From Gammaproteobacteria bacterium (GTDB taxonomy: Bacteria > Pseudomonadota > Gammaproteobacteria > GCA-001735895), in contig JBNKMF010000011.1 of assembly GCA_050292965.1 (NCBI GenBank), positions 5,010-69,009 on the forward strand: a stretch of 64,000 nt of DNA. Direction: 5' to 3'. Of this stretch, positions 19,016-56,667 are shown piece after piece. Made by a program: the position numbers and the translations under genes. The notes under the pieces are model-generated. The model was not told the origin of the DNA. It saw only the letters and a list, made by a program, of their open reading frames with translations, and searched no databases. The stretch's first letter is position 1; every line of letters starts with the position of its first letter.

Positions 19016-19019
19016 TCTC

Positions 19020-19535: not shown

Positions 19536-19555
19536 CACAAGCATGGTGAAACACT

Positions 19556-23128: not shown

Positions 23129-23430
23129 TCACTACAACCAAACAATTAACAAAATACTGGATACTTTCTGTGCTACTACTTGTATCTAATCCATCATGGT
23201 CACAGGAGGAGTTTAATGCTAACGCAAGAGTTCGACTCGAAGACGTAGGGCCAAATTTTATTATTATTAGAGATACCAGACATGCTACATTTTCAACAGT
23301 CAAGGTATTTCTTCCCAACAATAAACCTGGCCGAATGCAGGATCTAAAAAAAGGTGATTTTGTCAACGTAACTCTACTAAAAGTTGGAAAAGTTGAGTAC
23401 GCTGACACCATACGTTTACTGCCTAAGTAA
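23125..23430 (+). CDS. Small secreted protein in the position occupied by pilY2 in Pseudomonas
   Basis: 101 aa with a signal peptide. ATGA overlap with the pilY1 stop. No recognisable motif. Confidence 0.45.
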   Translation: MITTTKQLTKYWILSVLLLVSNPSWSQEEFNANARVRLEDVGPNFIIIRDTRHATFSTVKVFLPNNKPGRMQDLKKGDFVNVTLLKVGKVEYADTIRLLPK

Positions 23431-23605
23431 TATCTGAACCCGTGCTTTCAGGGCGAGTTCATGGCGTAAGAGATTGATTTCACGGTGGAGTTAAAAAATC
23501 TTAGCTTCACCTATAACCTTCATGGAATCAGTAACTTGCGTCAGGGACCGACATAAAGCTACGGATTCAGATAATAGTTAAAATATGATAAAACAGAGGC
23601 AAATC

Positions 23606-24013
23606 ATGAAATATAATAATGCTCAAAAAGGCTTCACCTTAATCGAAGTAGTAATTGTCATTGCAATTATTGGCATTCTTGGAGCAGTTGCCATGAGTGC
23701 TTATAGCGATTATATATTGAAAGCAAAATGTACAGAAGGGCGTGATGCTTTACTTTCAGCCGCTGCTTCTTTAGATAAATGCAAATCGCTTTATGGCGTA
23801 TATAATAGTGGAAACTGCAAAAATATAGATAACTTTTTAGGCCCCACAAAGAATGGCTACTTTGATGTTCAAAAGACAATATTTACTGACAAAACCTTTA
23901 CTCTAACTGCCTCTGGTCAAACTATTATGGCAGCAGCTAATAATAAATACTGCCCTACTATTACGCTTAATCACTTAGGCGTGCAAGGTGGAACAGGGGA
24001 AGAACCCTGGTAA
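23606..24013 (+). CDS. pilE: Type IV minor pilin PilE
   Basis: Start at the ATG at 23606 (AGAGG upstream). [29 protein letters not shown] plus Cys pairs. Confidence 0.8.
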
Positions 24014-31155: not shown

Positions 31156-31887
31156 CTACTCGGTTTCGGTTTCAGAGATGCAACTCATATAGGCCTGTTC
31201 CAGTGTATTGGTTTGATAACGATTAATACACTCGGCAGGCGTACCATCAAACACAATCCTGCCCTGATGCAGAATCCCAAAGCGATCACAAATCTCTTCC
31301 GCATCGGCCAGCAAATGAGTACTGTAGAAGATGGTTCTGTTGTACTCCCGCTCCTGTTTCAATAGTTGTTTGAAACTAAAACGCGCACCAGGATCCAGAC
31401 CGCTTAAGGGTTCATCCAGAATTACCATAGAACTATCCAGCATAAAACAACTCACCAGCCCGAGCTTTTGCAGCATACCCTTGGAATAATCACCAATCTT
31501 ATGGTCAAGTCGAGAATAATCGAGACAGAGTGCATCACATAAAGTGATCACTCGTTCCTGACTGAGCTTTTTCTGATACATCCCGTATATAAACCTGAGA
31601 TATTGCCAACCGGTCACTTCTTTGATGATATTGAATTTTTCGGGCAGATAGGCGATTACATTACGTGAAGATAGATTACGGTTAGACTGACCATCGATGT
31701 AAATCACACCACGTTGTACACCTCGAATAAGGTCCAGGATAATTTTAATCAGGGTAGATTTACCAGCACCATTTTCACCAGCTAGCGCATAATACTGACC
31801 CGCCGGAACATTAAGGTGAAGATCATCCAGTATCAATGCATTTCCAATCCGGTAACTTAGCTCATTTATCTCCAACATTTCAAGCAC
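31156..31887 (-). CDS. ABC transporter ATP-binding protein (ABC-2 exporter type)
   Basis: Walker A GENGAGKST, signature YSKGMLQKL, Walker B MVILDEP. Confidence 0.85.
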   Translation of the reverse strand: MLEMLEINELSYRIGNALILDDLHLNVPAGQYYALAGENGAGKSTLIKIILDLIRGVQRGVIYIDGQSNRNLSSRNVIAYLPEKFNIIKEVTGWQYLRFIYGMYQKKLSQERVITLCDALCLDYSRLDHKIGDYSKGMLQKLGLVSCFMLDSSMVILDEPLSGLDPGARFSFKQLLKQEREYNRTIFYSTHLLADAEEICDRFGILHQGRIVFDGTPAECINRYQTNTLEQAYMSCISETETE

Positions 31888-31967
31888 TCAAAATAGTAAC
31901 TCTAACGACTAAACCCTATCAGTTTCACCCGTGCAAAACTAATTAAATATATCTTTTTATCCTGATT

Positions 31968-31995
31968 AAAAAAAAGCCTGATTATCAGGCCTTTT
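31968..31995 (-). terminator. Terminator after pilin-like gene B
   Basis: The minus strand reads GCCTGA-TAA-TCAGGC followed by a T8 run. Confidence 0.7.
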
Positions 31996-32017: not shown

Positions 32018-32677
32018 CTACAAACGGAATGCCATATTATATCTTTTAGCATCGGCATAAGTTGTGCCAGCAGAAGATGTAGTCTTTTTATCCATCTTAA
32101 CACCTGCTTTATTTTCATTAGACTGAATTCGTCCAGCAGAGGGATTCCCATCATCCAGACGCCCTTCAATAATCTTGGCAATCGGTCCCTCAATAGCTCC
32201 AAAAATCGTCACATGCCCGGCAATAGCTAAAGAACCATCCTGAACACCAATTTGCCCACCATAAGCATTTGTAGGCCTGGTTGAATCTTTTGCACCACCA
32301 GGAATCAGCCCAGCCGCTCTCAAATGCCCGAAAAATTTTAAAGTTTCCTGTTTCCCATCTTCCCAGCTAACTACTGCTGCATTCCAATCTGTACCAGCAC
32401 CAATAGTGCCATTACCCTCTCCATTAGGATTATCTGAAGAATCATAAGCATTAAAGCGACCCAGTGCACCACTATCATCACCCGGCAACTGAAGATACCG
32501 ATCCTGATAGGAAAACATTGCGGCAGCTATACCAGCATTATCAGATTCAATCCGCTTCAGCTTGGCGTTGGTGATCATTTCCTGCCCTTTTAGTACGCCA
32601 CCAATCAACAGACCAACAATAACCAGCACTATGGCGATTTCCACCAGGGTAAAACCTTTATTTGTTTGAATTTTCAT
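32018..32677 (-). CDS. Prepilin-type N-terminal methylation-domain protein, cysteine-free, candidate major subunit (copy B)
   Basis: Start at the ATG at 32677 (GGAGG upstream). Short leader MKIQTNKG/FTLVEIAIVLVIVGLLIGG with Glu5. No Cys. Has its own sigma54 promoter and terminator. Confidence 0.75.
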   Translation of the reverse strand: MKIQTNKGFTLVEIAIVLVIVGLLIGGVLKGQEMITNAKLKRIESDNAGIAAAMFSYQDRYLQLPGDDSGALGRFNAYDSSDNPNGEGNGTIGAGTDWNAAVVSWEDGKQETLKFFGHLRAAGLIPGGAKDSTRPTNAYGGQIGVQDGSLAIAGHVTIFGAIEGPIAKIIEGRLDDGNPSAGRIQSNENKAGVKMDKKTTSSAGTTYADAKRYNMAFRL

Positions 32678-32706
32678 ATAATCCTCCATTTTTCACGTTG
32701 CTAACC

Positions 32707-32724
32707 AAGCATTAAATATGCCAA
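32707..32724 (-). promoter_or_regulatory. Sigma54 (-24/-12) promoter of pilin-like gene B
   Basis: The minus strand reads TTGGCATATTTAATGCTT. GG and GC sit at the canonical spacing, about 30 nt upstream of the ATG. Confidence 0.55.
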
Positions 32725-32781
32725 ATCAGGCATTCCCTTATTCATCTAACCTATTGTCCGCACTTTTGTTCTCAACTGAGA

Positions 32782-32905
32782 TTACTGTCGATCACTCAAC
32801 ATCGACTGTTGAATTTTCAACAGTCTTGACTGTAAAAAGCTTATTTCATTATCACAAACCAATACCTGGCTCAGCGAAGATGCGTGGGGGGACAAAATTA
32901 CGCTG
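32782..32905 (-). pseudogene. Duplicated 3-prime fragment of the 243-aa gene (34619..35350)
   Basis: Encodes …DNEISFLQSRLLKIQQSMLSDRQ*, against …DNDEIRFLQSRLLKIQQQMLSGRQ* in the intact gene. Nucleotide similarity fades upstream. Confidence 0.7.
32806..32833. promoter_or_regulatory. Candidate enhancer (UAS) palindromes upstream of the pilin B promoter
   Basis: CTGTTGAA-TT-TTCAACAG overlaps ACAGTC-TT-GACTGT. Same sequence and same distance (about 92 nt from the -24 element) as at 34643-34670. Confidence 0.35.
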
Positions 32906-32924
32906 ACTGAAAATTTTAAGAGCC

Positions 32925-33225
32925 ATATACCGACAAAGCAGAAACTGTTTCGGAAGCTGGATGGCTTATGCAACACCTGTAGGCCTGCTCTAGCGTATCG
33001 ACCTGAAAGTGCTGGATGCATTCATCCGGTATTCCATCAAATACTATCTTCTCTGATGTAGAATTGCTAAGTACCCACAGATCTCATCCGCATCAACCAG
33101 TATATGAGGTCAATAGAAAATCGTACGCCTTGATTCACGCTCCCGCTTCAGTAACCGCTTGAAGCTATAACGAGCATCAGGATCAATCCCACTTAAGGGT
33201 TCATCAAGTATCATGAATGGCATGC
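32925..33225 (-). pseudogene. Decayed 3-prime third of a duplicated ABC ATPase gene, truncated by the MITE
   Basis: Collinear nucleotide similarity to 31160-31430 (for example …GGATCAATCCCACTTAAGGGTTCATCAAG against GGATCCAGACCGCTTAAGGGTTCATCCAG). Ends at the MITE terminus at 33231. Confidence 0.7.
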
Positions 33226-33330
33226 TTTAACCTGGAATCAGCAGTAGGACGTGTTGTAGTGCGTTTGTGGTGGTGTAGATCAAGGCGTGACGACGCGGAA
33301 TAGCGAACTATTCCAGAGAGTTACAAAGCT

Positions 33331-33468
33331 CCCGCGTCCTGCTCACGCCCCTTACCTATGTCCCTATTGGCAAGGCTTCCGCGTCCTGCTCACGCCCCTT
33401 GCCTATGTCCCTATTGGCAAGGCTTCCGCGTCCTGCTCACGCCCCTTGCCTATGTCCCTATAGGCAAC
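33331..33468. repeat. 47-bp tandem repeat, about 2.9 copies, inside the MITE
   Basis: The unit TCCGCGTCCTGCTCACGCCCCTTGCCTATGTCCCTATTGGCAAGGCT starts at 33331, 33378 and 33425. Confidence 0.85.
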
Positions 33469-33525
33469 GCTGAGATACACCGCCTCAAACGTGCAATTCA
33501 GCTCGTAACGGGATTCACCTTCAGG

Positions 33526-33620
33526 GTTTTCAGCATGGATGCTGTTATTTCGCGAATGCATGGACGCATAGGAGCGTTTTCAGCATGGACGCTGTTATTT
33601 CGCGAATGCATGGACGCCTA
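33526..33620. repeat. 50-bp tandem repeat, about 1.9 copies, inside the MITE
   Basis: The unit GTTTTCAGCATGGATGCTGTTATTTCGCGAATGCATGGACGCATAGGAGC starts at 33526 and 33576. A single related unit is present at about 25213-25255. Confidence 0.8.
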
Positions 33621-33807
33621 CATGGACGTAGGCGTTAGAGCGAAGCAGGAGGCCAGAGCCGATGCATAGGAGCGGGAAAAGATAAATAGACTGTAGTGAT
33701 TAACGAAACAGTGGGTTACCTTATAATGCGAGCGGTCAACTGCGTAATACAGGTTTAACAGAAAACTAACCGCGAGACTTGCTAAACACAAGTTAAAGAC
33801 ATCAATT

Positions 33808-33840
33808 AAAAAAAGGCCTGAACACAGGCCTTTTTATTTT
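33808..33840 (-). terminator. Terminator after pilin-like gene A
   Basis: AGGCCTG-AACA-CAGGCCT with A/T runs on both sides. The minus strand reads a stem followed by T7. Confidence 0.7.
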
Positions 33841-33862
33841 ATCTCAACTTAAACAGGAAATA

Positions 33863-34513
33863 TTATAAACGAAAAGCCATATCATACCGCTTGGCGTCAT
33901 CATAAGCTGTAGCAGCAGTTCCTCCACTATCCATAGACTGTTTGGATTCAGCAGATTGAATTCTTCCACCATCCGGCTTCTGATCATCCAGACGTCCTTC
34001 AATAATCTTGGCAATAGGCCCCTCAATCGCTCCGAATATGGTTACATGACCGGATATCTGAAGAGAACCATCCTGGATACCTATTTGCCCGCCATATGCA
34101 TTGGTTGGTCTGGTCGAATCATTAGCACCACCAGGAATAAGACCAGCAGCTCTCAGATGACCGAAGAACTTTAATGTTTCCTGAGTATTCCCTTTAACCC
34201 AAGCAGTAGAAGTGTCCTCATCCCAGTCTTTACCATCACCAATAGTTCCGTCGCCACCGCCATTAGCTGTATCTGTTGTATAAGCATTAAATCTATCTTT
34301 AGCTCCACTATCATCACCCGGTAATTGTAGGTAACGATCCTGATAAGAGAACATGGCAGCAGCAATACCGGCATTATCCGATTCAATCCGCTTCAGTTTG
34401 GCATTGGTGATCATTTCCTGCCCTTTCAGCACACCACCAATCAACAGGCCAACAATAACCAGTACTATAGCGATTTCTACCAGGGTAAAACCTTTATTTG
34501 TTTGAACTTTCAT
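33863..34513 (-). CDS. Prepilin-type N-terminal methylation-domain protein, cysteine-free, candidate major subunit (copy A)
   Basis: Start at the ATG at 34513 (GGAG upstream; the ORF track starts at an upstream TTG). MKVQTNKG/FTLVEIAIVLVIVGLLIGG. No Cys. Confidence 0.75.
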   Translation of the reverse strand: MKVQTNKGFTLVEIAIVLVIVGLLIGGVLKGQEMITNAKLKRIESDNAGIAAAMFSYQDRYLQLPGDDSGAKDRFNAYTTDTANGGGDGTIGDGKDWDEDTSTAWVKGNTQETLKFFGHLRAAGLIPGGANDSTRPTNAYGGQIGIQDGSLQISGHVTIFGAIEGPIAKIIEGRLDDQKPDGGRIQSAESKQSMDSGGTAATAYDDAKRYDMAFRL

Positions 34514-34542
34514 ATCTTTCTCCAATTACTATGCAATTAAAA

Positions 34543-34560
34543 AAGCATTAAATGTGCCAA
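34543..34560 (-). promoter_or_regulatory. Sigma54 (-24/-12) promoter of pilin-like gene A
   Basis: The minus strand reads TTGGCACATTTAATGCTT, a good match to TGGCAC-N5-TTGCW with correct GG/GC spacing. Confidence 0.6.
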
Positions 34561-34618: not shown

Positions 34619-35350
34619 TTACTGTCGACCACTCAACATCTGCTGTTGAATTTTCAACAGTCTGGACTGTAAAAACCGTATCTCATCATTATCGGTAATC
34701 GATCCACTTTGCAGCATAGAGGAGATTAAAATCTGCGCGGATTCAAGTTCATTCAGCTCGTCGAGCAATATTATTTTCATGTCTCTGGCCCAGAATGGCA
34801 AGGTAATTGAATCTGGCAGAGCAGCAACCTTAGAGGCTAATTTTAGCGCCAGATCAAGATCATTTAACCGGTGTTTGGCCAGTAGACAGGCTTCGGTCAT
34901 ACGTCGCCAGTGCAACGCTGGGGCTTGCTCAAACAATTGATCAATAACATCGATAATCATCCTTATCTTTTCTGGGTCATCCACCTGGCTATACACTCTT
35001 GCCGCCAGAAAAGCCGGGTAATCTGACTGCTGATTCAGTTGCGACAGGGTCAGTAGCCATTGCCCCAGAGTTTTGTAATCAAGATTTTTATAGTTTTCAT
35101 GTCGGCCACGCTGATTATCATGCAACTGAACTTTAAACATTAACAGGTAACTCCACAGATCTTCAGAACCTTGCGTCAGCGAACGATAGAAATCTATTTC
35201 AAGTGGTGACTTGAGATGTTCAAAATCTCGTTGCAAGGATGATTTTAAATAAATCTGGTGGGTAACCTGAACTACGAATGCCAATAAAAATCCGACCAAC
35301 AGGATACGTGGCAGTTGCTGCAGACCTCTTTCGTTTGACTGAGTGATCAT
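34619..35350 (-). CDS. Membrane-anchored all-helical protein of unknown function
   Basis: One N-terminal TM helix (ILLVGFLLAFVVQV) followed by a helical-repeat-like domain. Lies between the ABC-2 permease and pilin A. Confidence 0.5.
   Translation of the reverse strand: MITQSNERGLQQLPRILLVGFLLAFVVQVTHQIYLKSSLQRDFEHLKSPLEIDFYRSLTQGSEDLWSYLLMFKVQLHDNQRGRHENYKNLDYKTLGQWLLTLSQLNQQSDYPAFLAARVYSQVDDPEKIRMIIDVIDQLFEQAPALHWRRMTEACLLAKHRLNDLDLALKLASKVAALPDSITLPFWARDMKIILLDELNELESAQILISSMLQSGSITDNDEIRFLQSRLLKIQQQMLSGRQ
34643..34670. promoter_or_regulatory. Candidate enhancer (UAS) palindromes upstream of the pilin A promoter, inside the 3-prime end of the 243-aa gene
   Basis: CTGTTGAA-TT-TTCAACAG (34643-34660) overlaps ACAGTC-TG-GACTGT (34657-34670). 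Confidence 0.35.
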
Positions 35351-35373: not shown

Positions 35374-36153
35374 TCAACTTCTTATTTCCTTGCGATAAAA
35401 ATCAACCAGTATCACAAGAAAAATAAATAAGCCATACACCATTAATGAAGAAGTTTGTGTAAACAGCAAATGCAAGAAATCAGAAGATTCGAACAGTGCA
35501 TTATTCTGGGCAAAAACCGACATATCAGGCAACACAAAAGAGATGCCCTGCATCATCATATTCCCGAGTTGAAAACCGGTTTCATCCTGATAATACATAG
35601 ATGACTTATTAAATATATAGTTGATCAAAGGCACCAGTTTTGAAAACAGATAAACCACGAAGCTAAAAACCAAAGCTATTGGCAGTTTTTCCAGGCTCAA
35701 GGCTGCCAATATCGAAAACAGCCCCACCAGGATCAATTCAAGAAAAACAGCTGTTGACCAGTACACAGCAATAGCGCCGTCTGCAGTAAAAAACAGCAAT
35801 AGAAAGACCACTAAATTCATAGCCAATGCAAACACCAGCACAACAAAAAACTCGGCCAGCACATATTGCCAACGAGCGATAGGCATAGCCAGCAATCGGT
35901 TAAACTGGCCCAGCTCATAATCCTGACTAATTTGATGACAAACGCTGATCATCAAAAACAGCACCAGGCTATAACGAAGAAACTCTGCCAACACTGCAAG
36001 ACCAATAACATCGCTATTGATAATAGCCAGCTCTGCTGAAAAACGGCTCAATAAAAAAGAGGCTAAATATATACTGCAAAAAACAATCATGTTTTTTGTA
36101 TTTATAAGGCTCAGCAACTGATACCTGAACAATGCTATAGTTTGTGAAAACAT
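35374..36153 (-). CDS. ABC-2-family transporter permease
   Basis: Six TM helices and an ABC-2-like QDYELGQFNRLLAMPIARWQYVLAEF loop after TM2. Confidence 0.6.
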   Translation of the reverse strand: MFSQTIALFRYQLLSLINTKNMIVFCSIYLASFLLSRFSAELAIINSDVIGLAVLAEFLRYSLVLFLMISVCHQISQDYELGQFNRLLAMPIARWQYVLAEFFVVLVFALAMNLVVFLLLFFTADGAIAVYWSTAVFLELILVGLFSILAALSLEKLPIALVFSFVVYLFSKLVPLINYIFNKSSMYYQDETGFQLGNMMMQGISFVLPDMSVFAQNNALFESSDFLHLLFTQTSSLMVYGLFIFLVILVDFYRKEIRS

Positions 36154-36186: not shown

Positions 36187-37869
36187 ATGAAACTGGTTAA
36201 ACTTCTAATACAGCTAGAACAGCAGATACTCGCAACAATTTTACTTTTACTGCATGGCCTCACATGGAACTTTACAGATAAGTTTATCTATTTTTCCATG
36301 GTGCTTGTACTTTATGGACTGTTTTTTTTGTGGCAACCCTTATGGGGCAAAGATACCAAAATAAGCACCACCCGGTCCTTCATTATCATAATTTTATTAC
36401 TGACTTTCAGTTACTTTTATCATAATGAATCACTAATTTTGTTCTGTCTGATTGTTTCTGGCCTAATAGGTAGCAGGCTATTTAGTCACAATACCTCAAG
36501 AGCCTTCGATTTGCTCGCTATCTCTATTCTGATCATTGAAATGGCCATAGGCATTATCCCGAATACCTTTGCGCAAATTAATCTTCCCGTTCAATTTACC
36601 TCGTTAATCCAATCCCTGATATTAATTCCCATCCTGGGATTTTTCTTTGCCCCTAGCCCTGATAGAGCACAGCAACCACGCAGTCAGATTGACTTTATGC
36701 ATGGTCTGCTAACCGCCACTTTAATCTTCATCGCCTTACTGGGTGGTATAGTTATCAATTTATTATACGGTGTTGACTACCTGGACGGCCTGCTTTTAAC
36801 GGTTTTCATTGTATCAACACTTTCAATCGGTATAAGCTGGTTCTGGAACCCGGGCGTTGGTTATTCAGGTCTGGGGGTGCTCTGGAACCGTTATGCAATG
36901 ACTATTGGAGGGCCTTTTGAAACCTGGATAAACACCTTAACTACGCTGATTGAAGAGTCCTATATATCAGCATCCGAGTTCCTGCAAGCTGCCTGTGAAC
37001 ACTTAATTGAGAATGACTGGCTAAACGGTATTCAGTGGCAATTCAAAGGCTTTACCATAGCATCAGGTTCCAGAAGAGGTGCCATATTCCATCACAAATT
37101 AACTGAACAAATACTGGTCACCATATACTTTAAATCAGACCCAGGAAAAGCATTACGACAGCATACCATTCTATTAATTCGTATGGCTTATCAATTTTAT
37201 CTTGCTAAATTGAATCAGGATAAAATGAGAGCCCAGGAGCATTTTGAAACCATTCACCACACCGGTGCCCGATTGACGCATGACATAAAAAATATCCTTC
37301 AATCCATTAAAACATCAATCGATATCGTGCAGGCCACTCCTGATGACAAAAAACAGAAATCCAATAAGCTACTCAGACAAAACCTCGATCGAATCAGCAG
37401 TCGACTCGAATCTACCCTTGATAAGCTAAAGTCACCCGAAATATCAACATCCATTAGAATCATCAGTCTCGAAGAATGGGTTAGACGATTTCAGTCAGAA
37501 CATGCCTACCCCTGGTTAACAGTAAACCAGGACATCAGTCTTAACCATGCAGTCCCATGCGAGTTATTTGATAGCGTCATCAGTAATCTGATATCGAACA
37601 CCCAGAATAAAAAAAATGTAAGCAGGGTAATCATTGATATCACCGCAAATAGTGAAATGATTGTTGTTACCGTATGTGATAATGGTGAACAAATGAATCC
37701 TGACCTGGAAAGTAATATTTTTATAAAGCCAATATCGTCAGGAGAAGGGATGGGTATAGGTCTTTATCAATCAGCCATTATGGCAAGATCTTTTAACTTT
37801 GAGCTGGAGCTTGCGAATAATGAAAATGGCAGGGTTTGCTTTAGTTTATTTCAGCATTTAGGTGAATAG
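36187..37869 (+). CDS. Polytopic sensor histidine kinase (possibly PrsK-like)
   Basis: About 7 N-terminal TM helices and a linker domain. H-box ARLTHDIKNILQSI, N-box LISNLISNTQN, G-boxes DNGEQM and GEGMGIGLYQS. Confidence 0.8.
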   Translation: MKLVKLLIQLEQQILATILLLLHGLTWNFTDKFIYFSMVLVLYGLFFLWQPLWGKDTKISTTRSFIIIILLLTFSYFYHNESLILFCLIVSGLIGSRLFSHNTSRAFDLLAISILIIEMAIGIIPNTFAQINLPVQFTSLIQSLILIPILGFFFAPSPDRAQQPRSQIDFMHGLLTATLIFIALLGGIVINLLYGVDYLDGLLLTVFIVSTLSIGISWFWNPGVGYSGLGVLWNRYAMTIGGPFETWINTLTTLIEESYISASEFLQAACEHLIENDWLNGIQWQFKGFTIASGSRRGAIFHHKLTEQILVTIYFKSDPGKALRQHTILLIRMAYQFYLAKLNQDKMRAQEHFETIHHTGARLTHDIKNILQSIKTSIDIVQATPDDKKQKSNKLLRQNLDRISSRLESTLDKLKSPEISTSIRIISLEEWVRRFQSEHAYPWLTVNQDISLNHAVPCELFDSVISNLISNTQNKKNVSRVIIDITANSEMIVVTVCDNGEQMNPDLESNIFIKPISSGEGMGIGLYQSAIMARSFNFELELANNENGRVCFSLFQHLGE

Positions 37870-37870: not shown

Positions 37871-38665
37871 TCAGGGTAACCTACCAGCTTCAACCAGTTT
37901 AGAAAGCAAAAGATTTGTTGATAGCCAACGTATCAGATCATCATACTCAGCACCACTTTGGTTACTACGCTGAGCGTAGACAAAGATTCGATCCATTGTC
38001 GCAGCAACATTAAAGTTATCCAGATTCTCAGCCTGAATATTGGATGTTGAGTTCGCTTGATCTTTGCCTGTAGAAATTACAACAGCGGCAACTCGGGACA
38101 TGACTTCTTTCGTTCCAACAGGGCAGACAATCTGATCCCCTATTGCTGGACTATCATCACATATATGGATATCTCCAACCATATTACCGAAAACCTGAGC
38201 TTTAATATTTACCCGGTCTATAAAATCATCATTCGCCCCAGCCCCGTCAGATACTGCATATAAATAGGGTTTTCCCCACGGGTCGAGCAACCTGCCCATA
38301 TCATCATAACGACCTTGAATACCTAAAGTTTTCCCAGGTAAATATGCGAAGTCAGAATCGCAATCCCAGGTAACATTAACATCTTCTTCCCCATCAAAAT
38401 CAGTTGCTACCACCGTACTATCTGGGCAGGGCAAACGCCCATCAACCTGAGCAAAGCGGATCAGGTATTTTATGATAGAGTCCATTTCTTCATTTGCTGT
38501 TTCATATTGCTTCACATCATGCTGTGCAGGATAAATACCGACTGTGTAGCCTAACAATATAGTAACTATTAAAAACACCAGCGTCACCTCAACCAGTGTA
38601 AAACCAGATATTGCTTTAGGATTTATTGAATTAGAAAAGAATTTATACGGCTGCATGATATGCAT
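37871..38665 (-). CDS. Large prepilin-type protein (264 aa) with the GRLPCPD motif
   Basis: Leader …KAISG/FTLVEVTLVFLIV with Glu5. DGRLPCPD. Four Cys in the same pattern as the 258-aa paralog. Confidence 0.7.
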   Translation of the reverse strand: MHIMQPYKFFSNSINPKAISGFTLVEVTLVFLIVTILLGYTVGIYPAQHDVKQYETANEEMDSIIKYLIRFAQVDGRLPCPDSTVVATDFDGEEDVNVTWDCDSDFAYLPGKTLGIQGRYDDMGRLLDPWGKPYLYAVSDGAGANDDFIDRVNIKAQVFGNMVGDIHICDDSPAIGDQIVCPVGTKEVMSRVAAVVISTGKDQANSTSNIQAENLDNFNVAATMDRIFVYAQRSNQSGAEYDDLIRWLSTNLLLSKLVEAGRLP

Positions 38666-38693
38666 AGATTTAGTAATTAAATTATCATGCTAA

Positions 38694-39470
38694 TTATAAC
38701 TGCCCAGCATCTATCATTTTTGAATACAGAATATTCGGACTAATCCATTTCACGATATCATCATACTCAGCTCCTTTTACATCACTACGAGAAGTTTTTA
38801 CAAAAATTCGATCATTACTTGTCGCAGTCAGGCCTGCGTCTGTATTTTCTTTTTGAATATCCGAGTCAACCCGCCCCCTGTCTTTACCCAACGAAAGGAT
38901 AACAGCAGGCACATTTTCTGCTACAGCACCTGAGGCACCTCCAGGGCAAGTCAACTGAGTGCCTCCAACAGGCCCATTGGTTATACAGATAGACAGATCG
39001 GGAGCTAATCCAGCTATACCGACTGCTTTAATATCACCTGTGATAACAAAATCACCACCTGCACCCATTCCTGTATCATCTGATGTAACCTGATATCGAT
39101 AGGGCGACCCCCAGGGGTCTTGCAGTGAAAAATTACCATCCAAGCTACCATCTAAACCTAGTGTTTTAGTAGGAACATATCCGTACCACTCAGTGCAATC
39201 TGTGGTACCACCAGTTGGGTCCTCTACTCCATCAGGGGCATCCATATCATCGGCACACGGTAATCGTCCATTCACCTGTGCGAAGGCATACAGAGCATTC
39301 AGGATTTGATCCATTTCAGCATTCGCTTTACGGTATTGTTTCAACTCCTGCTGCACAGGGACCATGGCGACGGTATAACCCAACAGAATGGTGACAATAA
39401 TCAACACGATTGCAATTTCAATCAATGTGAAGCCTGTCATTTTATTCGCTTTTGGGCTCATCAGATGCAA
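38694..39470 (-). CDS. Large prepilin-type protein (258 aa) with the GRLPCAD motif
   Basis: Leader …NKMTG/FTLIEIAIVLIIV with Glu5. NGRLPCAD. C-terminus …YDDIVKWISPNILYSKMIDAGQL parallels the 264-aa paralog. Confidence 0.7.
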   Translation of the reverse strand: MHLMSPKANKMTGFTLIEIAIVLIIVTILLGYTVAMVPVQQELKQYRKANAEMDQILNALYAFAQVNGRLPCADDMDAPDGVEDPTGGTTDCTEWYGYVPTKTLGLDGSLDGNFSLQDPWGSPYRYQVTSDDTGMGAGGDFVITGDIKAVGIAGLAPDLSICITNGPVGGTQLTCPGGASGAVAENVPAVILSLGKDRGRVDSDIQKENTDAGLTATSNDRIFVKTSRSDVKGAEYDDIVKWISPNILYSKMIDAGQL

Positions 39471-41038
39471 CCCGTAACTTTAAGAGGGGGTGTAGTAGAT
39501 GGATCTACAACGATACAATACAGGAGATCATTAATATCACCAGTTGTAGGATCCGACCCTTTATAATACATAGTATCATTGCCGGTATAGGCAATATCTG
39601 AAGGATACTGATGCGCATTACTCTCAGTGGTCACGGTCGCAGAAGATTTGGCATCCAGATAGTTAGAGAGCTGGTTTTTTTCATCTGTAGACTCCAATGG
39701 TTCCGCATCTCTGGACTGAGTCGACACGATACTATCAGAATAAAAAACGATACCCGCTACTTTAGTACCCGCCGTTATTCCATTCACCGTTACACAATCA
39801 GTAGAGGTAATGCATCGGCTGTTTAACGAAGAAGTAGAGCCCCCCATTTGAAAATCAGAAGACACCACATAGAAAAAATGATCTTTCCAGTTTTGCCAGA
39901 GTTTCTTTTCAGCATCGGGGGTAGCACTAGTTCCTGCGCTTGTAGGCAGACAGCCAGCCTCCGAAATTATATCCTGCATATTAGCGAATACTTGTACGGG
40001 ACTAGATGTCACAGTGTTTTCTTTGTCGTTACTGTCTTTTATATTGAATGGAAAGCGTCCCATTAATAATGCAGGGCTATCCTGATCGTCATAATTTGAA
40101 TCGCTCCGATACTCACTCAAATCGATTGGTGCAGGCCAGGGTAACCAGTGATGTTCATTATTAGTATCATTCGCATAATTTGCCAAACATTGCGCCAGAG
40201 CTTTTGTGAGCTGATTAATCCCCTTTGTGCTATCACTGGTATCAAGATCTTTCTGAGCTTTAATCGCAGCCCAGTATTCTGATTTTGTGATCCACACCAT
40301 GCGGTCATTATATGCGCTATTTTCAAGATTTTTGCCTGCTGATGCATAGAGGTAGGTCCAAATGGTATCTGCGACTTTGGCATGATCGCTTGTATAATCT
40401 ATAACACCTCCTGATTCAAGATAATTACCTTCATCATAATTACCTCGACAAAGTCTCATACTGGGATCATCCAGACTTCTATCCTGATCACCCAAAGTAG
40501 CTCTGGGTGCAAAAATAATGGCAATAGGTCGATCCTCTGGATTGTTACCATAATACAGATTACCATCTTCATCTTGAATATCGAGTAATCCATTAGTATC
40601 TTCATTCAACATATCAGCTTTTGGCATGTCTTTATACTCACCCGAAACCACGTACCAGAGACACTCCCCTGCACTGTCTTTCAAGGCTTCTATACCCAGT
40701 GTTTTCCATGGTAAAAAACCCACTGAATTCACATGCTTACCACCACAAGAGGTATCCTGAGCACCTTCTGAGACGCCAGGGGAGGCTTCAAACTTGTGAT
40801 CGGGACAGGGTAGACGCCCCATTTCATCCAGTTTACTTGTTTTTTTATACTCCACAGCATAACTTAACAAAGCCTGTTTTGCTTTTCTTAACACAGCCTG
40901 ATCATGCTCAACCTTTTCAATATAGACGGTTTTTGTTTTATTCTGCATTAAGTTAGACCCAACAACACCGGCAAAGCCCAGCAGCACTACAATAAAAATC
41001 AACAGGGCAAAACCAGATTGATTAATTTGGATTCGCAT
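39461..41038 (-). CDS. Giant (525 aa) pilin-like protein lacking Glu5, GspK/PilX-like role
   Basis: MRIQINQSG/FALLIFIVVLLGFAG has no Glu at +5. MGRLPCPD motif. Overlaps the next gene by 10 nt. Confidence 0.6.
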   Translation of the reverse strand: MRIQINQSGFALLIFIVVLLGFAGVVGSNLMQNKTKTVYIEKVEHDQAVLRKAKQALLSYAVEYKKTSKLDEMGRLPCPDHKFEASPGVSEGAQDTSCGGKHVNSVGFLPWKTLGIEALKDSAGECLWYVVSGEYKDMPKADMLNEDTNGLLDIQDEDGNLYYGNNPEDRPIAIIFAPRATLGDQDRSLDDPSMRLCRGNYDEGNYLESGGVIDYTSDHAKVADTIWTYLYASAGKNLENSAYNDRMVWITKSEYWAAIKAQKDLDTSDSTKGINQLTKALAQCLANYANDTNNEHHWLPWPAPIDLSEYRSDSNYDDQDSPALLMGRFPFNIKDSNDKENTVTSSPVQVFANMQDIISEAGCLPTSAGTSATPDAEKKLWQNWKDHFFYVVSSDFQMGGSTSSLNSRCITSTDCVTVNGITAGTKVAGIVFYSDSIVSTQSRDAEPLESTDEKNQLSNYLDAKSSATVTTESNAHQYPSDIAYTGNDTMYYKGSDPTTGDINDLLYCIVVDPSTTPPLKVTGCI

Positions 41039-41046
41039 GGCTCAAA

Positions 41047-41502
41047 TTATTGCTGAATAGTTCGAAGGTAGGTCAAATCAAGAACTTCACCACTGACAGC
41101 CGAGTAATTTTTACCATCGGGGGCTGTAATAACGACAGAGCTGTTCTTAATCCTGATCTTAGATCCATCATCCATGACTTCTCCAGATTCATACGCCTGA
41201 CCATTTATCCATGCGGTCTTACTTCCCTCGTTATTCGTAGAAACTCCTGATATTTTGTAAGTTAATACTACCTCTTCCTTTTTTACCTCGCGCTCTGCAT
41301 CAACATTCTGTTGCTCTGGTTCAACTTGAGGCTGTATATTCTCAACCGGTTTATCCTCTTTATAACGATTGCTATCAATGATCTGGCGCTCCTTAGCGGT
41401 AGTAAACAGGGTTTGCATCTGCGATAGATCTTGCGATGAAACCTTTGCGCTATAACCGCATAAGAGCACGAGAACAAATAAAATATTTTTAACTTTTAGC
41501 AT
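41047..41502 (-). CDS. PilP/MshK/GspC-HR-like periplasmic protein
   Basis: Signal peptide, charged linker, and a C-terminal beta domain (…ISGVSTNNEGSKTAWINGQAYESGEVMDDGSKIRIKNSSVVI…). Confidence 0.5.
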   Translation of the reverse strand: MLKVKNILFVLVLLCGYSAKVSSQDLSQMQTLFTTAKERQIIDSNRYKEDKPVENIQPQVEPEQQNVDAEREVKKEEVVLTYKISGVSTNNEGSKTAWINGQAYESGEVMDDGSKIRIKNSSVVITAPDGKNYSAVSGEVLDLTYLRTIQQ

Positions 41503-42091
41503 CGATACTAATCCAGCGAATCACACAGTTTGAATTCAAGTTAGCTTTTTGTGTATCAAACCTTTTACCTACGGCTCCCAGTAAAGTCATACTGCAACTA
41601 TCTACTGTAAAAAGATTACTTATTGATGAACTCAGGCCATCCAGTAAGGCGAATAAATCTTCCTCATGTAATAAGGACATAGTCAATTCCATAGGTGAGC
41701 TTTTCACTTCGACCTTATTTTCAACTTTTAATTTTGGACGTTCAAAATCTTCCTGTGGTAATAAATTAAAGCTTAGCCTGGGCAGTTTAAGCACTGAATT
41801 GGTTGATCGCAGGCTTTCTATCCAGCTCAACCTGCGCTCTCCACCCACTAAACCACTAGCCTTATAATCCGAATACTTGACCGTATATTGTTCCAGCAAA
41901 TCTATATCCTTAACCAGATTTTTGTATTTCTTATGCGTTGCTCTCAGACTTGCTGTTCCCTTCTGATAAGCTGTTACCTGGGCTTCTTCGTATTGCAAAC
42001 CCGAGTACACCAGAGCAACTGATAAAATAACCGCTACCAAAAGAAATATCAGGGTTCGCTTAAGAAAAAGAAAGTCGATTTTATTTTTCAT
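41489..42091 (-). CDS. PilO/MshJ/GspM-like bitopic assembly protein
   Basis: Single TM helix, coiled-coil segment, small C-terminal domain. Its position between the PilM-N-like and PilP-like genes supports the call. Confidence 0.5.
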   Translation of the reverse strand: MKNKIDFLFLKRTLIFLLVAVILSVALVYSGLQYEEAQVTAYQKGTASLRATHKKYKNLVKDIDLLEQYTVKYSDYKASGLVGGERRLSWIESLRSTNSVLKLPRLSFNLLPQEDFERPKLKVENKVEVKSSPMELTMSLLHEEDLFALLDGLSSSISNLFTVDSCSMTLLGAVGKRFDTQKANLNSNCVIRWISIDAKS

Positions 42092-43670
42092 CTGTTATTA
42101 CCTTTCTTACAACCCGAATAGAAAACTCTGCCTTATTCTCACTTCTCTTTATATCGGAACTGACATCACCCGATAATCGGTTATTAGACTCAATATCTAA
42201 CGGACGTTTTAAAACAGTTACCGAGTCAAAATCATTTGACACTTTCATAGCATCTTCCAGATCGTCGACAGCACTTAATGCATATCGATAATTCCCATCA
42301 AACTCCAGGAATTCACCCGATATAACCGCTACTTCATATAGATCTTTTCCTACTGCTGCTGTTGATCTATTTCGACCACGCCCCGAGTTCTTCCCTCCCC
42401 ATGAAACATCGCTAATTGATATAGCATCTGCAGAGTTAGATATAAACCAGTCAAGTTTTTTTAAACGCATTAAATCAAACAGTGACAGGTGCTGGCTGAT
42501 TTTGACGAGCAAGTCTTCTGGTCGAGCCTGATAAAACCTGTCAATCTTCTCTACCGTTTTCACCACTGCCTGCATAGTTGTTGTACTGGTACTAGAATCC
42601 GTTCGACTGGCTGAAAGCTGATTAAATTTGGATTGATATTTTTGTTCGACTAACTGCATTTCATTTACAGTCTTACCATATAACATTCCCTTAACAACCG
42701 ATGTAGCAAAAAGTCCAGTTGACGTAGCAATCAATATAATACTAATAACTTTAGTAGTAACTGCTGCAAGATGATGATAAAAATATTTTTTCTCGGTGGC
42801 ATTTGCATAATGATTAGCTAGCATTTTTTTTGACGCATGGTAGCAAAATAAAATTGAGCTAAAGTCCTGTTCTTCATTAATCTCAATTTTTTCCTCATCT
42901 ATAACATCATTTACATTATGGATGTGATAATCAAAATACTCATCTTCTGCACACTTAATAGTTAGTTTATCTTTATGCCTTTCATTACAGAGTATATGCA
43001 CCGATATTACATCAGTCCGGTCTATAATCCTCTGACTAAAAAGATAGCGCTGGGTACCTTCTACATCTCGAACAACATCAGAGGCATAATCACCCTGATA
43101 AAAACTGGCAATAGGAACCAGGCGGCTGAGAATTAATTTACCATTAATGAAAACGGATTGACGAAGATTGCTGGGTACCTGTTGAGTCACCAGAATTATG
43201 CACTCATGATCGCCTTTAAACCTGGCGATAAAGTCTTCACTGATTAATGGCAGACTTAATATACCGGATAATGGGGTACGAGTAGAATCAATAATATCCA
43301 GCCAGGGTTTTAACAGGTACTGGTTAGTCAGCCCCATTAATAACAGATGTTCTTCTTTTCTACCTTTTTTTACAACTGACTGAGATTTAGCCAGACGATA
43401 CTCAGAATTTCTAAAAAACTTGGTGAAATTCCTGTTGATGATTTGAATTCTATCCGGACCTCTTAGAAAGGGTATCTTGACCTGACGAAACTCTTCTTCA
43501 ATCAAGTCTATTAATAACCGGACCGGCTCATTTTTAAGTGATTCAAGATAGGCCGTAAATAAATCCAGCCCCTGCTCATCTGGCTCAAAATAAACACTAC
43601 TTTGCAGCTTAGTCCCGGACCACTCCTGGGCAACCATTCTATATCCTGTAAAGTAGAGAACTCTTTTCAT
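42081..43670 (-). CDS. MshI/GspL-like fused PilM-PilN-type assembly protein
   Basis: A cytoplasmic domain of about 300 aa, one TM helix (VTTKVISIILIATSTGLFATSVV), and a periplasmic tail. Immediately downstream of the platform gene. Confidence 0.5.
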   Translation of the reverse strand: MKRVLYFTGYRMVAQEWSGTKLQSSVYFEPDEQGLDLFTAYLESLKNEPVRLLIDLIEEEFRQVKIPFLRGPDRIQIINRNFTKFFRNSEYRLAKSQSVVKKGRKEEHLLLMGLTNQYLLKPWLDIIDSTRTPLSGILSLPLISEDFIARFKGDHECIILVTQQVPSNLRQSVFINGKLILSRLVPIASFYQGDYASDVVRDVEGTQRYLFSQRIIDRTDVISVHILCNERHKDKLTIKCAEDEYFDYHIHNVNDVIDEEKIEINEEQDFSSILFCYHASKKMLANHYANATEKKYFYHHLAAVTTKVISIILIATSTGLFATSVVKGMLYGKTVNEMQLVEQKYQSKFNQLSASRTDSSTSTTTMQAVVKTVEKIDRFYQARPEDLLVKISQHLSLFDLMRLKKLDWFISNSADAISISDVSWGGKNSGRGRNRSTAAVGKDLYEVAVISGEFLEFDGNYRYALSAVDDLEDAMKVSNDFDSVTVLKRPLDIESNNRLSGDVSSDIKRSENKAEFSIRVVRKVITDEK

Positions 43671-43676
43671 AATTAT

Positions 43677-44882
43677 TTAAAAGTCTATGGTGCTAATAGT
43701 GTCATAAATTGGACCCAGTACAGAGAGCGCTAACCAAAGTACAATAATGCCAATTACTGCCATTAGTGAGGTTTGCAAAATGGGTTCAAGCTTATCGATC
43801 TCGTCATTTATATCTCTTTCATAAAAATAGCTTACATTTTTTAACGATTCATCCATTCGACCAGTAGATTCTCCCACGCGCAGCATTCGAATGACCAGAG
43901 GGGGAAATATCCCAATATTCTGGAAGCTTTCACTGATACTGCCACCTTCTGATATTTGAACCCACGCACGGTCAATACCATCTTCCAGCACTAGATTACT
44001 AACTACAGATTTACTCATTTTGATTGCATCGAGAACGGTAATTCCTGAAGCAAACATTAAGGCGAAGTACCTGGTAAAACGAGAAATTTTTATTTTTTCA
44101 TTCACATCACCAATGGGCCAGGCCCTGAGCAATATGCCATCCATTTTAAATCGAAATTTAGCGTTATTTTTATAAAAATGACTGATAACAAAGATCAGGG
44201 CTATGGGAGTCGCAATTACGATATACCAGTAATTAATCAAGAACCCTGATACTGCCATAAGCGCTCTGGTTTCCAACGGTATTTCTCCACCCAGAGATAC
44301 AATCGCACTCATTATGTCGGGCACGACAAATATCATCAGGAACATAATAACAGCCATAATCAATGAACCGATCACTGCTGGATAGGTCATGATTTTCCTT
44401 GCCTTACCGATTATTTCATCTTGCCATTTAAGGGTTTCTGTAATATCAGATAGTACTTCAGCCATTTTACCGCTGCGCTCTCCAACCTTAACCAGGCTGA
44501 CGAAGACGTTGTCAAACACCCTGGGATAGATTGCTAATGCTTTGGAGAAGGAATTACCACCCTCAACCGCTTCTATCACACTGGCAATAACATCACGGAA
44601 GCCTGGATTTTCTTCGCTTTCTCTCAAGTCTTTCAAGCCATCAAGGATAGGCACGCCTGATCGGGTTAACTGCTCAAGGTGAAAGCTAAAGTTTATAAGA
44701 TCACGGCGCTTAATTTTATTGCGTCCAAAAATATCTGCCCCGGGTTCTTTTTGCTTGAAAGTAATCAGGTCGAGGCTCATTTTTTCCAGACGTAATTCCA
44801 GATCGGCAATATTACCCGCGTCCAGACTCCCCTGAATAAATTTACCCGTCTTATCTATGGCTTTATATTTATATAGTGGCAT
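43677..44882 (-). CDS. GspF/PilC/MshG-family inner-membrane platform protein
   Basis: MPLYKYKAIDKTGK… N-terminus, two T2SSF repeats and three TM helices. Confidence 0.85.
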   Translation of the reverse strand: MPLYKYKAIDKTGKFIQGSLDAGNIADLELRLEKMSLDLITFKQKEPGADIFGRNKIKRRDLINFSFHLEQLTRSGVPILDGLKDLRESEENPGFRDVIASVIEAVEGGNSFSKALAIYPRVFDNVFVSLVKVGERSGKMAEVLSDITETLKWQDEIIGKARKIMTYPAVIGSLIMAVIMFLMIFVVPDIMSAIVSLGGEIPLETRALMAVSGFLINYWYIVIATPIALIFVISHFYKNNAKFRFKMDGILLRAWPIGDVNEKIKISRFTRYFALMFASGITVLDAIKMSKSVVSNLVLEDGIDRAWVQISEGGSISESFQNIGIFPPLVIRMLRVGESTGRMDESLKNVSYFYERDINDEIDKLEPILQTSLMAVIGIIVLWLALSVLGPIYDTISTIDF

Positions 44883-44886
44883 AGCG

Positions 44887-46602
44887 CTAGGTCATCCTGT
44901 CGGTCAGGTCAGTTACACGCGATATTTCTTCAATAGAAGTAATACCGCTTAGAACATGCCGTATCCCATCATCAGCAAGGGTGAAAAAACCTTGTTGATA
45001 AGCAACCTCTTTAATTTCTTTAGTTGTTGCACCATGCGCCAACATATCATCAAGATCAGAATTCATCTTGAGAATTTCCATCAGTGCCATACGCCCTTTA
45101 TAACCCGAGTTTTCGCAGGCTGAACAACCTTTGGCGCGATATATTTTATTTGGCCTAATGCCATCAGGGTTAGTTAAAAGCCTGAGCTCATGCTCGTCAG
45201 GATGGTATGCCTCCTTACAGTATTTGCACAATTTACGTATCAAGCGTTGCGCAATAACACCAATTATATTACCCGCCATAATTTCAGGCATAATGCCAAT
45301 ATCCCTTAACCGGGGCAGAGCACCAATGGCTGAGTTCGTGTGCAGTGTAGAATAAACCTGATGACCAGTCATTGCTGCGCGAAATGCCATTTCAGCTGTA
45401 TCTTCATCACGAATCTCACCGACTAGAATAATATCAGGATCCTGTCGCATTAAGGATTTAATACCATCTGCAAAGTTCATACCTGCCATATCACTGACCG
45501 AAGTTTGCCGAATCAATGGAAAGGGGTATTCAACCGGATCTTCCAGGGTCATGACATTAACTTTTTCTGTACTCATATGATTGAGTAGTGAGTAAAGCGT
45601 GGTAGTTTTACCACTACCTGTGGGGCCGGTTACCAAAATCATACCTTCTGGCCGAGACATCATAATTTTCAGCATTCGCATCGAGGCTTCAGGTAGCTCC
45701 AATCCATCCAGTGGAATGACGCCTTTTTCCCTGTCCAGCACACGCAGAACGATATTTTCACCATGAATGGTTGGCTGCGATGCCACACGAAAATCTATCT
45801 GTCGACCAATGATAATTCTTGAAATTCGTCCATCCTGAGGTGATCGGGTCTCAGCAATATTCATATCTGCCATGACCTTTAAGCGAACCGCAATTGCGGC
45901 CCAATAGGTTTTGTGCAGGCTTCGAATCTGCCTTAAAACACCATCTATTCGGTATCGAATGCGCAGGAAGCTTTCTTCTGGTTCAAAGTGAATATCTGAT
46001 GCGCCTCGCTTTACCGCATCCGCCATCATGACATCCACCAGTCTTACCAGCGGCTGACTGTATTCTTCAATATCACCCTGATAATTAGTGTAATCAGCTT
46101 CACCTGTCTCGATTTCACGCAAGATGCCATCGATGGACAGCTCATATCCATAGAACTGGTCTATGGCATTCGAAATTTCTGTTTCTCCAGCCAGTACTGG
46201 TGTGATATCAACATGCTGTCCAATCTGAATACGAATACGATCCAGTGTAAAAAGATTAAACGTATCCGACATAGCAATGGTTAGACTGCCTGTCGCACTG
46301 TTGTAATTAAGAGGGATAACCTTGTGTTTGCGCGCGGTCTCTGAGTCTATTAAAGTGATCGCTTCGGGATCTGGTACCACATTGGCAAGATCAACACTGT
46401 CCTGCTCCAGAGCTTCACCTAGTGCCGAACGCATTATAGCTTCGGTAGCAAACCCTAGATTTACCAGCAGCTTACCTAATGGTAAGTCGACTTTTTTCTG
46501 CTCAGTAAGAGCTATATTCAATTGATCAGGAGTGATAACTCCTTCATCGATGAGTATTTCACCCAGCCTTTTTGGCTTGTTTGGAGCATGCACAGTTTTC
46601 AC
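44887..46602 (-). CDS. GspE/PilB/MshE-family assembly ATPase with an MshEN-type N-terminus
   Basis: Walker A GPTGSGKTT, Asp and His boxes, a tetracysteine motif (CKYC…CSAC). N-terminal RLGEILIDEGVITPDQLNIALTEQ plus LGKLLVNLGF. Confidence 0.9.
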   Translation of the reverse strand: MKTVHAPNKPKRLGEILIDEGVITPDQLNIALTEQKKVDLPLGKLLVNLGFATEAIMRSALGEALEQDSVDLANVVPDPEAITLIDSETARKHKVIPLNYNSATGSLTIAMSDTFNLFTLDRIRIQIGQHVDITPVLAGETEISNAIDQFYGYELSIDGILREIETGEADYTNYQGDIEEYSQPLVRLVDVMMADAVKRGASDIHFEPEESFLRIRYRIDGVLRQIRSLHKTYWAAIAVRLKVMADMNIAETRSPQDGRISRIIIGRQIDFRVASQPTIHGENIVLRVLDREKGVIPLDGLELPEASMRMLKIMMSRPEGMILVTGPTGSGKTTTLYSLLNHMSTEKVNVMTLEDPVEYPFPLIRQTSVSDMAGMNFADGIKSLMRQDPDIILVGEIRDEDTAEMAFRAAMTGHQVYSTLHTNSAIGALPRLRDIGIMPEIMAGNIIGVIAQRLIRKLCKYCKEAYHPDEHELRLLTNPDGIRPNKIYRAKGCSACENSGYKGRMALMEILKMNSDLDDMLAHGATTKEIKEVAYQQGFFTLADDGIRHVLSGITSIEEISRVTDLTDRMT

Positions 46603-48833: not shown

Positions 48834-48855
48834 AGCAATCCCCTGTCGGTTGTCG

Positions 48856-50430: not shown

Positions 50431-50465
50431 TGTTTTTCCCAGTCCTTACAAGAACCTGTTCAAAT

Positions 50466-52136: not shown

Positions 52137-52197
52137 AGGTAATCACCCTAACCCTTTATTGTTGAAACCCAGAATATTTCTCATACCAGTTACTTTA

Positions 52198-53586: not shown

Positions 53587-53687
53587 GGGGTATCACTAAA
53601 AAATAGTACCACAGTATACTGTTGAAATCTCAACAACTCAAACTGTACGCGAACACTTACAGGGAAATTATTGATATTCCGAGTGTT

Positions 53688-56664: not shown

Positions 56665-56667
56665 AAC

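Follow-up and report, generated by a model that had tools for sequence, protein, structure and literature searches.

Tandem cysteine-free pilin genes as candidate major subunits of a second MSHA-type filament system in a gammaproteobacterium

Two neighbouring pilin genes on the minus strand of a gammaproteobacterial contig (assembly GCA_050292965.1, contig JBNKMF010000011.1; "the window" denotes the whole 64,000-nucleotide stretch analysed) are best understood as tandem paralogues of the major subunit of a second type IV filament system of the mannose-sensitive haemagglutinin (MSHA) type, whose machinery is encoded at 41-53.6 kb. We give this reading a probability of roughly 70%. It is carried by what was established by observation, namely the sequence features of the genes, their conservation, synteny, and a cis-element shared with the regulator of the system. 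Taken together, the findings describe an uncharacterised pilin family and a system variant on the textbook regulatory logic of PilS/PilR, sigma-54 and pilA, and current understanding is not overturned. Their importance lies in offering a candidate major subunit along with an almost complete predicted cis-regulatory circuit (enhancer pair, sigma-54 promoter, terminator, autoregulated activator) for an unstudied filament system that occurs in many uncultured marine Gammaproteobacteria, including a gutless-worm symbiont. The genes and the elements of the proposed circuit are the following.

33863..34513, minus strand: upstream pilin gene, 216 aa, leader MKVQTNKG, mature start FTLVE, 0 Cys, N_methyl 27.0 bits (cutoff 21.2)
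32018..32677, minus strand: downstream pilin gene, 219 aa, leader MKIQTNKG, mature start FTLVE, paralogue of the former, 0 Cys
34544..34559, minus strand: -24/-12 element TGGCACATTTAATGCT of the upstream pilin, ending 30 nt before the ATG
32708..32723, minus strand: -24/-12 element TGGCATATTTAATGCT of the downstream pilin
33800..33838, minus strand: intrinsic terminator AAAAAGGCCTGTGTTCAGGCCTTTTTTT of the upstream pilin, ~27 nt past the stop
31965..31993, minus strand: intrinsic terminator GGCCTGATAATCAGGC plus T8 of the downstream pilin
34623..34659 (34644-34659 and 34623-34638): palindrome pair TGTYGR-N4-YCRACA within the last 40 nt of the u243 open reading frame (ORF), proposed enhancer (upstream activating sequence)
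32786..32822 (32807-32822 and 32786-32801): palindrome pair retained in a non-coding u243 remnant
53620..53635: single palindrome, 34-49 nt upstream of the regulator ATG
52198..53586, minus strand: sigma-54 enhancer-binding response regulator with receiver, AAA+ domain with GAFTGA, Walker A and Fis-type helix-turn-helix (HTH); first gene of the machinery operon

The original prediction, made from the DNA letters alone, had placed two pilin ORFs here, and both are present at these positions on the minus strand, each ATG (34513 and 32677) being preceded by a GGAG ribosome-binding site. The short type IVa-like leaders ascribed to them are borne out as eight residues ending in Gly (MKVQTNKG/FTLVE and MKIQTNKG/FTLVE), followed in both proteins by FTLVEIAIVLVIVGLL with Phe at +1 and Glu at +5. 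The products thus carry the class III prepilin signature of a short basic leader ending in Gly, a hydrophobic N-terminal helix and Glu+5, and they do not have the leader of type IVb pilins, given its eight residues and the Phe at +1. The N-terminal methylation models score above cutoff (PF07963, 26.4 and 27.0 bits, cutoff 21.2; TIGR02532, 24.4 bits, cutoff 16.3), and beyond this motif nothing in the Pfam, NCBIfam and PHROGs scans of the two pilins did so. Absence of cysteine, likewise claimed before, applies to both proteins, and the mature subunit comprises 208 residues.

At 79% overall identity, the two pilins differ in a strongly patterned way. The near-identity noted earlier for the first ~70 residues is such that V3I is the sole difference in residues 1-71, a segment with ~24 synonymous compared to ~3 non-synonymous differences, and the conserved central block and two variable patches are also found, with the patches at ~72-111 and 179-205. 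Between the paralogues, the ratio of non-synonymous to synonymous change (omega), obtained by the Nei-Gojobori method, is 0.03 for residues 1-72 (N-terminal helix) and 0.06 for the core (112-179), as against 0.43 in patch 1 and 0.27 in patch 2; between orthologues, patch 1 gives omega of 0.76 and 1.7, values that rest on few changes. The earlier suggestion of purifying selection on the core with diversified exposed patches is supported in that the pattern is what a constrained core and surface patches under relaxed or diversifying selection would give, though it is no proof of positive selection.

The pilin genes had been described as stand-alone cassettes running from sigma-54 promoter to terminator, and this description is supported with one reservation: promoter and terminator are conserved among the orthologues, but the cassettes are not fully stand-alone because the putative enhancer sites sit in the 3' end of the upstream gene. 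Using TGGCAC-N5-TTGC as the sigma-54 consensus, with GG and GC at fixed spacing, the -24/-12 elements proposed at ~30 nt before each ATG are both recovered with GG-N10-GC spaced correctly. Strict matches in the 64-kb window number three compared to ~1 expected, of which the third lies within coding sequence, so that the two sites preceding the pilins are the only intergenic ones, and no other intergenic sigma-54 promoter was found across the second MSHA-type cluster. Among orthologous loci, the element is kept in strict form in 28 of 37 and as a near-variant in ~6 more, while a scan for sigma-70 promoters returned promoter-like sites no commoner than in shuffled sequence. The predicted terminators are GGCCTG-N4-CAGGCC hairpins with T-runs that start ~27 nt past each stop; 36 of 39 loci retain a terminator there, its stem sequence differing between them. 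Many deeper-branching loci (L002-L045) additionally show, directly 5' of the -24 box, an A/T-rich element of roughly CAGAAATATAAGGTTTTTT, which is not present in the window and could be a bending or integration host factor-type site.

Upstream of each promoter lie two 16-bp palindromes, spaced exactly 21 bp apart (two helical turns) and centred at about -97 and -118, ~65-100 nt upstream of the -24 element. The pair is present in 39 of 40 pilin upstream regions (shuffled expectation 0.29), and exact matches in the window number five, compared to 0.08 expected, with four of them before the pilins and the fifth in the promoter of the cluster's own response regulator. The palindrome arms co-vary symmetrically (TGTTGAAAATTCAACA, TGTTGGATTTCCAACA, TGTCGGAATCCCGACA) while the encoded residues shift (KI, DF, EF), and the window and the relative GCA_050306155.1 (L048) both preserve the pair in a u243 remnant that is non-coding. 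Symmetric arm changes combined with retention in non-coding sequence argue that a DNA-level function fits the palindromes better than protein coding. In the regulator promoter region (53586-53690), the palindrome TGTTGAGATTTCAACA is followed by TATACT, and in 16 of 16 metagenomic regulator orthologues (at least 60% identity, upstream sequence present) it fills the 17-nt spacer of TTGAAT-N17-TATACT, an arrangement that suggests negative autoregulation. The order regulator-MshM-MshL is also kept in the loci of these orthologues.

The cluster has a GAFTGA regulator, and the putative upstream sites fall in the ~80-150 bp range expected for a sigma-54 promoter. The palindrome, being common to the pilin promoters and the promoter of the regulator of the second system, ties the pilin genes to that system by a shared operator; it indicates that the pilins and the cluster's regulator form one shared regulon, in which the regulator would activate the pilin genes and at the same time autoregulate the operon it belongs to. 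The same 16-bp palindrome is usable as a probe for the regulon in metagenomes.

Synteny provides further evidence. The genes of the second cluster and its immediate neighbours, besides the pilins and the regulator, are as follows.

37871-53586: sigma-54-linked second MSHA-type cluster
41047..52136, minus strand: MSHA-type machinery (MshM-like ATPase, MshL secretin, tetratricopeptide repeat (TPR) protein, MshE-type ATPase, GspF/PilC platform protein, membrane proteins of 529, 200 and 151 aa)
37871..41038, minus strand: three additional prepilins of 525, 258 and 264 aa, which carry LPC(P/A)D and the GspG-like motif DPWGxPY
36187..37869, plus strand: histidine kinase with ~8-9 transmembrane segments in its first 220 aa and H-box THDIKN, candidate PilS-like sensor
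35374..36153, minus strand: membrane protein with ~6 transmembrane segments, no family match in the scans
34619..35350, minus strand: u243, predicted to be anchored in the membrane and built of TPR-like helical repeats, conserved immediately 5' of the pilin
31156..31887, minus strand: ATP-binding cassette (ABC) transporter ATPase, conserved immediately 3' of the pilin
28630-31147: ntrB/ntrC, the NtrC with GAFTGA; glnA lies beyond

The machinery is recognisably of MSH type, given the MshL model (TIGR02519) at 251.1 bits (cutoff 250.2, hence borderline) and NF053729 at 59.3 (cutoff 38), the MshEN Pfam domain with its cyclic di-GMP (c-di-GMP) motif, an AAA_22/TIGR03015-like (MshM-like) ATPase and the TPR protein. 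Across species-representative genomes, a scan recovered 47 loci from exclusively uncultured Gammaproteobacteria, among them the Gamma 3 symbiont of Olavius algarvensis and one closed chromosome from a metagenome-assembled genome (MAG). By tblastn, the order T2SSF-u529-u200-u151-pil525-pil258/264-HK-permease-u243-PILIN-ABC ATPase is found in nearly every locus long enough, and in ~40 uncultured Gammaproteobacteria a single pilin orthologue occupies the same slot beside the same MshL/MshE-type machinery. Conserved synteny and the palindrome in the system-2 regulator promoter together uphold the assignment of the pilins to the second system, for which the original prediction had relied on the alignment of LPGDD with the LPC(P/A)D motif of the neighbouring pilins. 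That alignment is in register, and HHalign against the 258/264-aa pilin family gives 98% probability with LPGDD set against LPCxD; the profile, however, covers residues 2-69 only, from the N-terminal helix to the motif, and so it is no evidence that the globular heads are homologous. The motif by itself is weak evidence.

The 525-, 258- and 264-aa prepilins are probable minor or tip pilins. Those of 258 and 264 aa (37871-39470) are paralogous, most relatives (L004-L046) carrying one, and they show DPWGxPYxY, at least 4 cysteines and, at the C terminus, a tail of striking conservation, ...S(K/R)MI(E/D)AGQLP. The best family match of the histidine kinase is PrsK-like and below cutoff. The protein at 35374..36153 is likely an ABC-2-type permease partner of the ATPase. 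None of the 392 homologues in the u243 family has a Pfam domain or an annotation other than hypothetical, and the u243 model (predicted local distance difference test, pLDDT, of 85) has only generic TPR-like structure matches.

In the mechanism suggested by these features, the multi-transmembrane histidine kinase would control the sigma-54 enhancer-binding response regulator, which would bind the two phased palindromes, located ~100 and ~120 bp before the transcription start of each pilin, and activate the -24/-12 promoter, to give a short monocistronic mRNA ending at the hairpin terminator. By binding the single palindrome in its own sigma-70-type promoter, the same regulator would subject the machinery operon to autoregulation. 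The prepilin would be cleaved after Gly8 by a prepilin peptidase whose gene lies elsewhere, the MshE-type ATPase and the platform protein would polymerise the subunit, and the filament would leave via the MshL secretin. In this scheme, we infer the protein that binds the palindromes, the dependence on rpoN, the processing of the prepilin and the exposure of the filament on the surface.

Several points weigh against the proposed role. The binder of the palindrome is deduced only from co-occurrence. Neither a prepilin peptidase (pilD) nor a retraction ATPase was found in the 64-kb window. The globular head fits no characterised pilin by sequence (Pfam, NCBIfam, PDB profile searches), and Foldseek of the pilin model against the PDB gave type IVb pilins as the best, weak matches (template modelling (TM) score 0.33-0.42, E at least 0.0075). 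Across the clade, glnA-ntrB-ntrC is conserved beside the ABC ATPase in most loci, so that a second sigma-54 activator adjoins the pilin locus. Finally, pilin identity across the clade is 59-76%, surpassed within the cluster only by the platform protein; conservation this high is unusual for an exposed major pilin and resembles that of periplasmic pseudopilins. The latter aspect would be explained if the two proteins were the major pseudopilins of a secretion-type machine, their short endopilus remaining in the periplasm like that of GspG in type II secretion and driving substrate through the secretin, without a surface fibre being formed. Lack of a disulfide, as is generally known for GspG, the GspG-like DPWGxPY and weak T2SSG match of the adjacent pilins, and an ABC transporter conserved around the pilin gene all point the same way. 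Yet the GspG and GspH models reach just 26-28 bits on the pilins (cutoffs 80-89), confined to the N-terminal helix, the secretin and ATPase are of the MshL and MshE type, and 208 mature residues are far larger than GspG. Variation in the two patches, with omega up to 0.4-1.7, and the phage-borne homologues described below, which an exposed receptor explains more easily, are further at odds with a periplasmic endopilus. We therefore consider it unlikely, while still the strongest of the competing interpretations.

In another alternative, the adjoining NtrB/NtrC pair (28630-31147) would control the pilins, making the filament a response to nitrogen limitation and leaving the cluster's regulator in charge of the machinery operon only. 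NtrC is a sigma-54 activator with GAFTGA, as such a role demands. Its consensus in enteric bacteria (TGCACC-N5-GGTGCA, general knowledge) is nonetheless different from TGTTGA-N4-TCAACA, no copy of the palindrome occurs in the glnA-ntrBC region even with one mismatch allowed, and the promoter of the regulator within the cluster itself carries the identical palindrome, in the window and in 16 of 16 orthologues alike. Nitrogen control of the pilins is improbable on this evidence. Less probable still is assembly of the pilins by the type IVa pil system or by the canonical MSHA operon (53.7-64 kb), with their place beside the second system reflecting inherited synteny only. Such a scenario draws on the presence of three type IV filament gene sets in the window and on the general knowledge that pilins can be promiscuous between machineries, but it has to contend with a linkage to system-2 genes that is kept in ~40 genomes and in distant Cys-containing relatives, with the cis-element common to the pilins and the system-2 regulator, and with the alignment of the helix through LPGDD with system-2 pilins. 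The reading as tandem major subunits of the second MSHA-type system accommodates these observations best. The three filament gene sets of the window comprise the second cluster and the following two.

16948-24013: type IVa minor-pilin operon fimU-pilVWXY1E
53688-63968: canonical MSHA operon, directly abutting the second cluster

Family analysis places the loss of cysteine in context. A search among 1.84 billion representatives, with nothing but the globular domain as query, retrieved 261 relatives at E ≤ 0.001, 58 of them at E ≤ 1e-10, united by the motifs Y.DRY..LPGDD, NG.GDG.I, E..FW.HLR.AGL, P.N.[FY]GG and LDDG. The NG.GDG.I motif is a DxDxDG-like loop, for which calcium binding is a conjecture only. 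Cysteines occupy both columns equivalent to I159 and A213 in 77 of 95 full-length representatives, neither column in 16 and one only in 2; the disulfide is thus considered ancestral and lost as a pair in the present clade, which has Ile and Ala instead, and the C-terminal disulfide that is frequent, though not universal, among pilins is absent from those of the window. Paired cysteine loss within one family constitutes a natural experiment on how a pilin head is stabilised without a disulfide. The distant Cys-containing relatives also end MshE-T2SSF-type clusters, without ABC genes. Their loci (L051, L052-L054) have an embedded response regulator with receiver and HTH_8 and without AAA+, so sigma-54 dependence may be specific to the Cys-free clade. 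The AlphaFold2 model of the pilin (pLDDT 77) has a long N-terminal helix (11-60), a second helix and a sheet of four strands at 143-215.

By any score tested, the subunit is not MshA, GspG, a type IVb pilin or the PilA of Myxococcus. The GspG model TIGR01710 gives 27.0 and 27.9 bits against a cutoff of 88.85, restricted to the N-terminal 65-67 residues, and PF08334 does not match. MshA from the PDB (9lab_B) matches residues 4-24 only (E 0.069), and the M. xanthus PilA model scores 18.7 bits (cutoff 400). Conductive e-pilins are ruled out by the large subunit and an aromatic content (F+W+Y+H) of only ~8%. A PDB profile search with the pilin sequence gave matches limited to the helix, with E at least 0.015.

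Regarding regulation, there exist family-level likenesses to the PilS-PilR-RpoN control of pilA in P. aeruginosa, Myxococcus and Geobacter: a monocistronic major pilin, a sigma-54 promoter, an upstream NtrC-type activator and a kinase with many transmembrane segments, the P. aeruginosa PilS having six of them and sensing PilA in the membrane (PMC6058289). Unlike these systems, the machinery here is of the MSHA and not the type IVa kind, kinase and regulator are encoded ~14 kb apart on opposite strands, and the operator is a 16-bp palindrome in two copies 21 bp apart, bearing no resemblance to the hallmarks of PilR sites (PMC6058289). Vibrio MSHA shares the MshL-type secretin, MshM-like ATPase, TPR protein, MshE-type ATPase with N-terminal c-di-GMP motif and the short type IVa-like leader. 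In contrast to it, the subunit described here has no similarity to MshA past the first ~21 residues, is larger and disulfide-free, and belongs to a cluster with permuted gene order and its own sigma-54 two-component regulators, next door to which the canonical MSHA operon stands separately.

The pilA-pilGHI locus of M. xanthus is alike by gene neighbourhood alone, with a large major pilin beside an ABC ATPase, a permease, a family-less accessory protein and pilS/pilR, though gene order differs. A role of PilGHI in pilus biogenesis was reportedly described by Wu et al. in 1998. Mention of M. xanthus PilGHI is also found in PMC6060248. Lack of cysteine in the mature protein is a feature shared with GspG, Geobacter PilA and ComGC, the last a disulfide-free pilin of Streptococcus (PMC5572924); those proteins are small or ancestrally without the pair, whereas here one clade of a Cys-pair family lost both residues together. 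The type IVb pilins CofA, TcpA and Salmonella PilS are the best though weak fold matches mentioned above and have a similar size of ~190-210 aa, but the TM scores are low and type IVb leaders are long (15-30 aa) with variable +1 residue, unlike the short leader with Phe+1 found here. Literature searches on Olavius Gamma 3 and pilin, and on MSHA and sigma-54, yielded nothing specific to this pilin family.

The arrangement of the two cassettes, missed by the original prediction, is that of a tandem duplication, in which direct repeats recur at an interval of 1833-1837 nt. Between the pilin genes lie 1185 nt of spacer with two gene remnants.

32949..33220, minus strand: ABC ATPase pseudogene remnant, C-terminal ~90 codons with in-frame stop and frameshift, blastx E 2e-27
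32785..32859, minus strand: u243 remnant, last ~26 codons, carrying the palindromes

From these remnants, the duplicated unit is recognised as the u243 3' end, promoter, pilin, terminator and ABC ATPase. With dS of ~0.9 between the paralogues, the duplication is evidently old. The relative GCA_050306155.1 has the same duplication with both pilin copies, and more distant relatives have a single copy. At 33324-33471 and 33523-33620, in place of the 5' part of the decayed ABC ATPase copy, the spacer contains three tandem 47-nt units and two 50-nt units that are GC-rich (54% compared to 43.5% for the window), have no other copy in the window, and are missing from the spacer of that relative, which is shorter.

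Full-length Cys-free prepilins of the family are also encoded on two phage contigs, L058 (IMGVR_UViG_3300024518_005611; positions 8001-8660, 49% identical) and L055 (3822-4487, 41% identical). The former is flanked by an SbcCD-like nuclease, a RuvC-like resolvase, a helicase and a baseplate hub, the latter by an HNH endonuclease and many tiny ORFs. Such genes may be pilin decoys or serve superinfection exclusion, and they would fit a surface filament used as phage receptor; a comparison of the pilin model with the viral structures of BFVD gave no match. They point to an arms race between phage and pilus that may explain the variable patches and the duplication. A broader and distinctly speculative view, which we judge unlikely to hold in full, is that of a separate branch of MSHA-derived type IV filaments, widespread in uncultured sediment and symbiotic Gammaproteobacteria, with a large, unusually conserved, disulfide-free major subunit that would depend on a dedicated split ABC transporter and a TPR-like membrane protein; its role could be one other than ordinary adhesion (e.g., secretion or symbiosis-specific attachment), and its importance as a receptor would be such that phages carry decoys of the pilin. 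Lastly, many MAG contigs (L001-L046) end right at the pilin gene or no more than a few hundred bases from it, which may reflect assembly breaks from multiple copies or strain variation.

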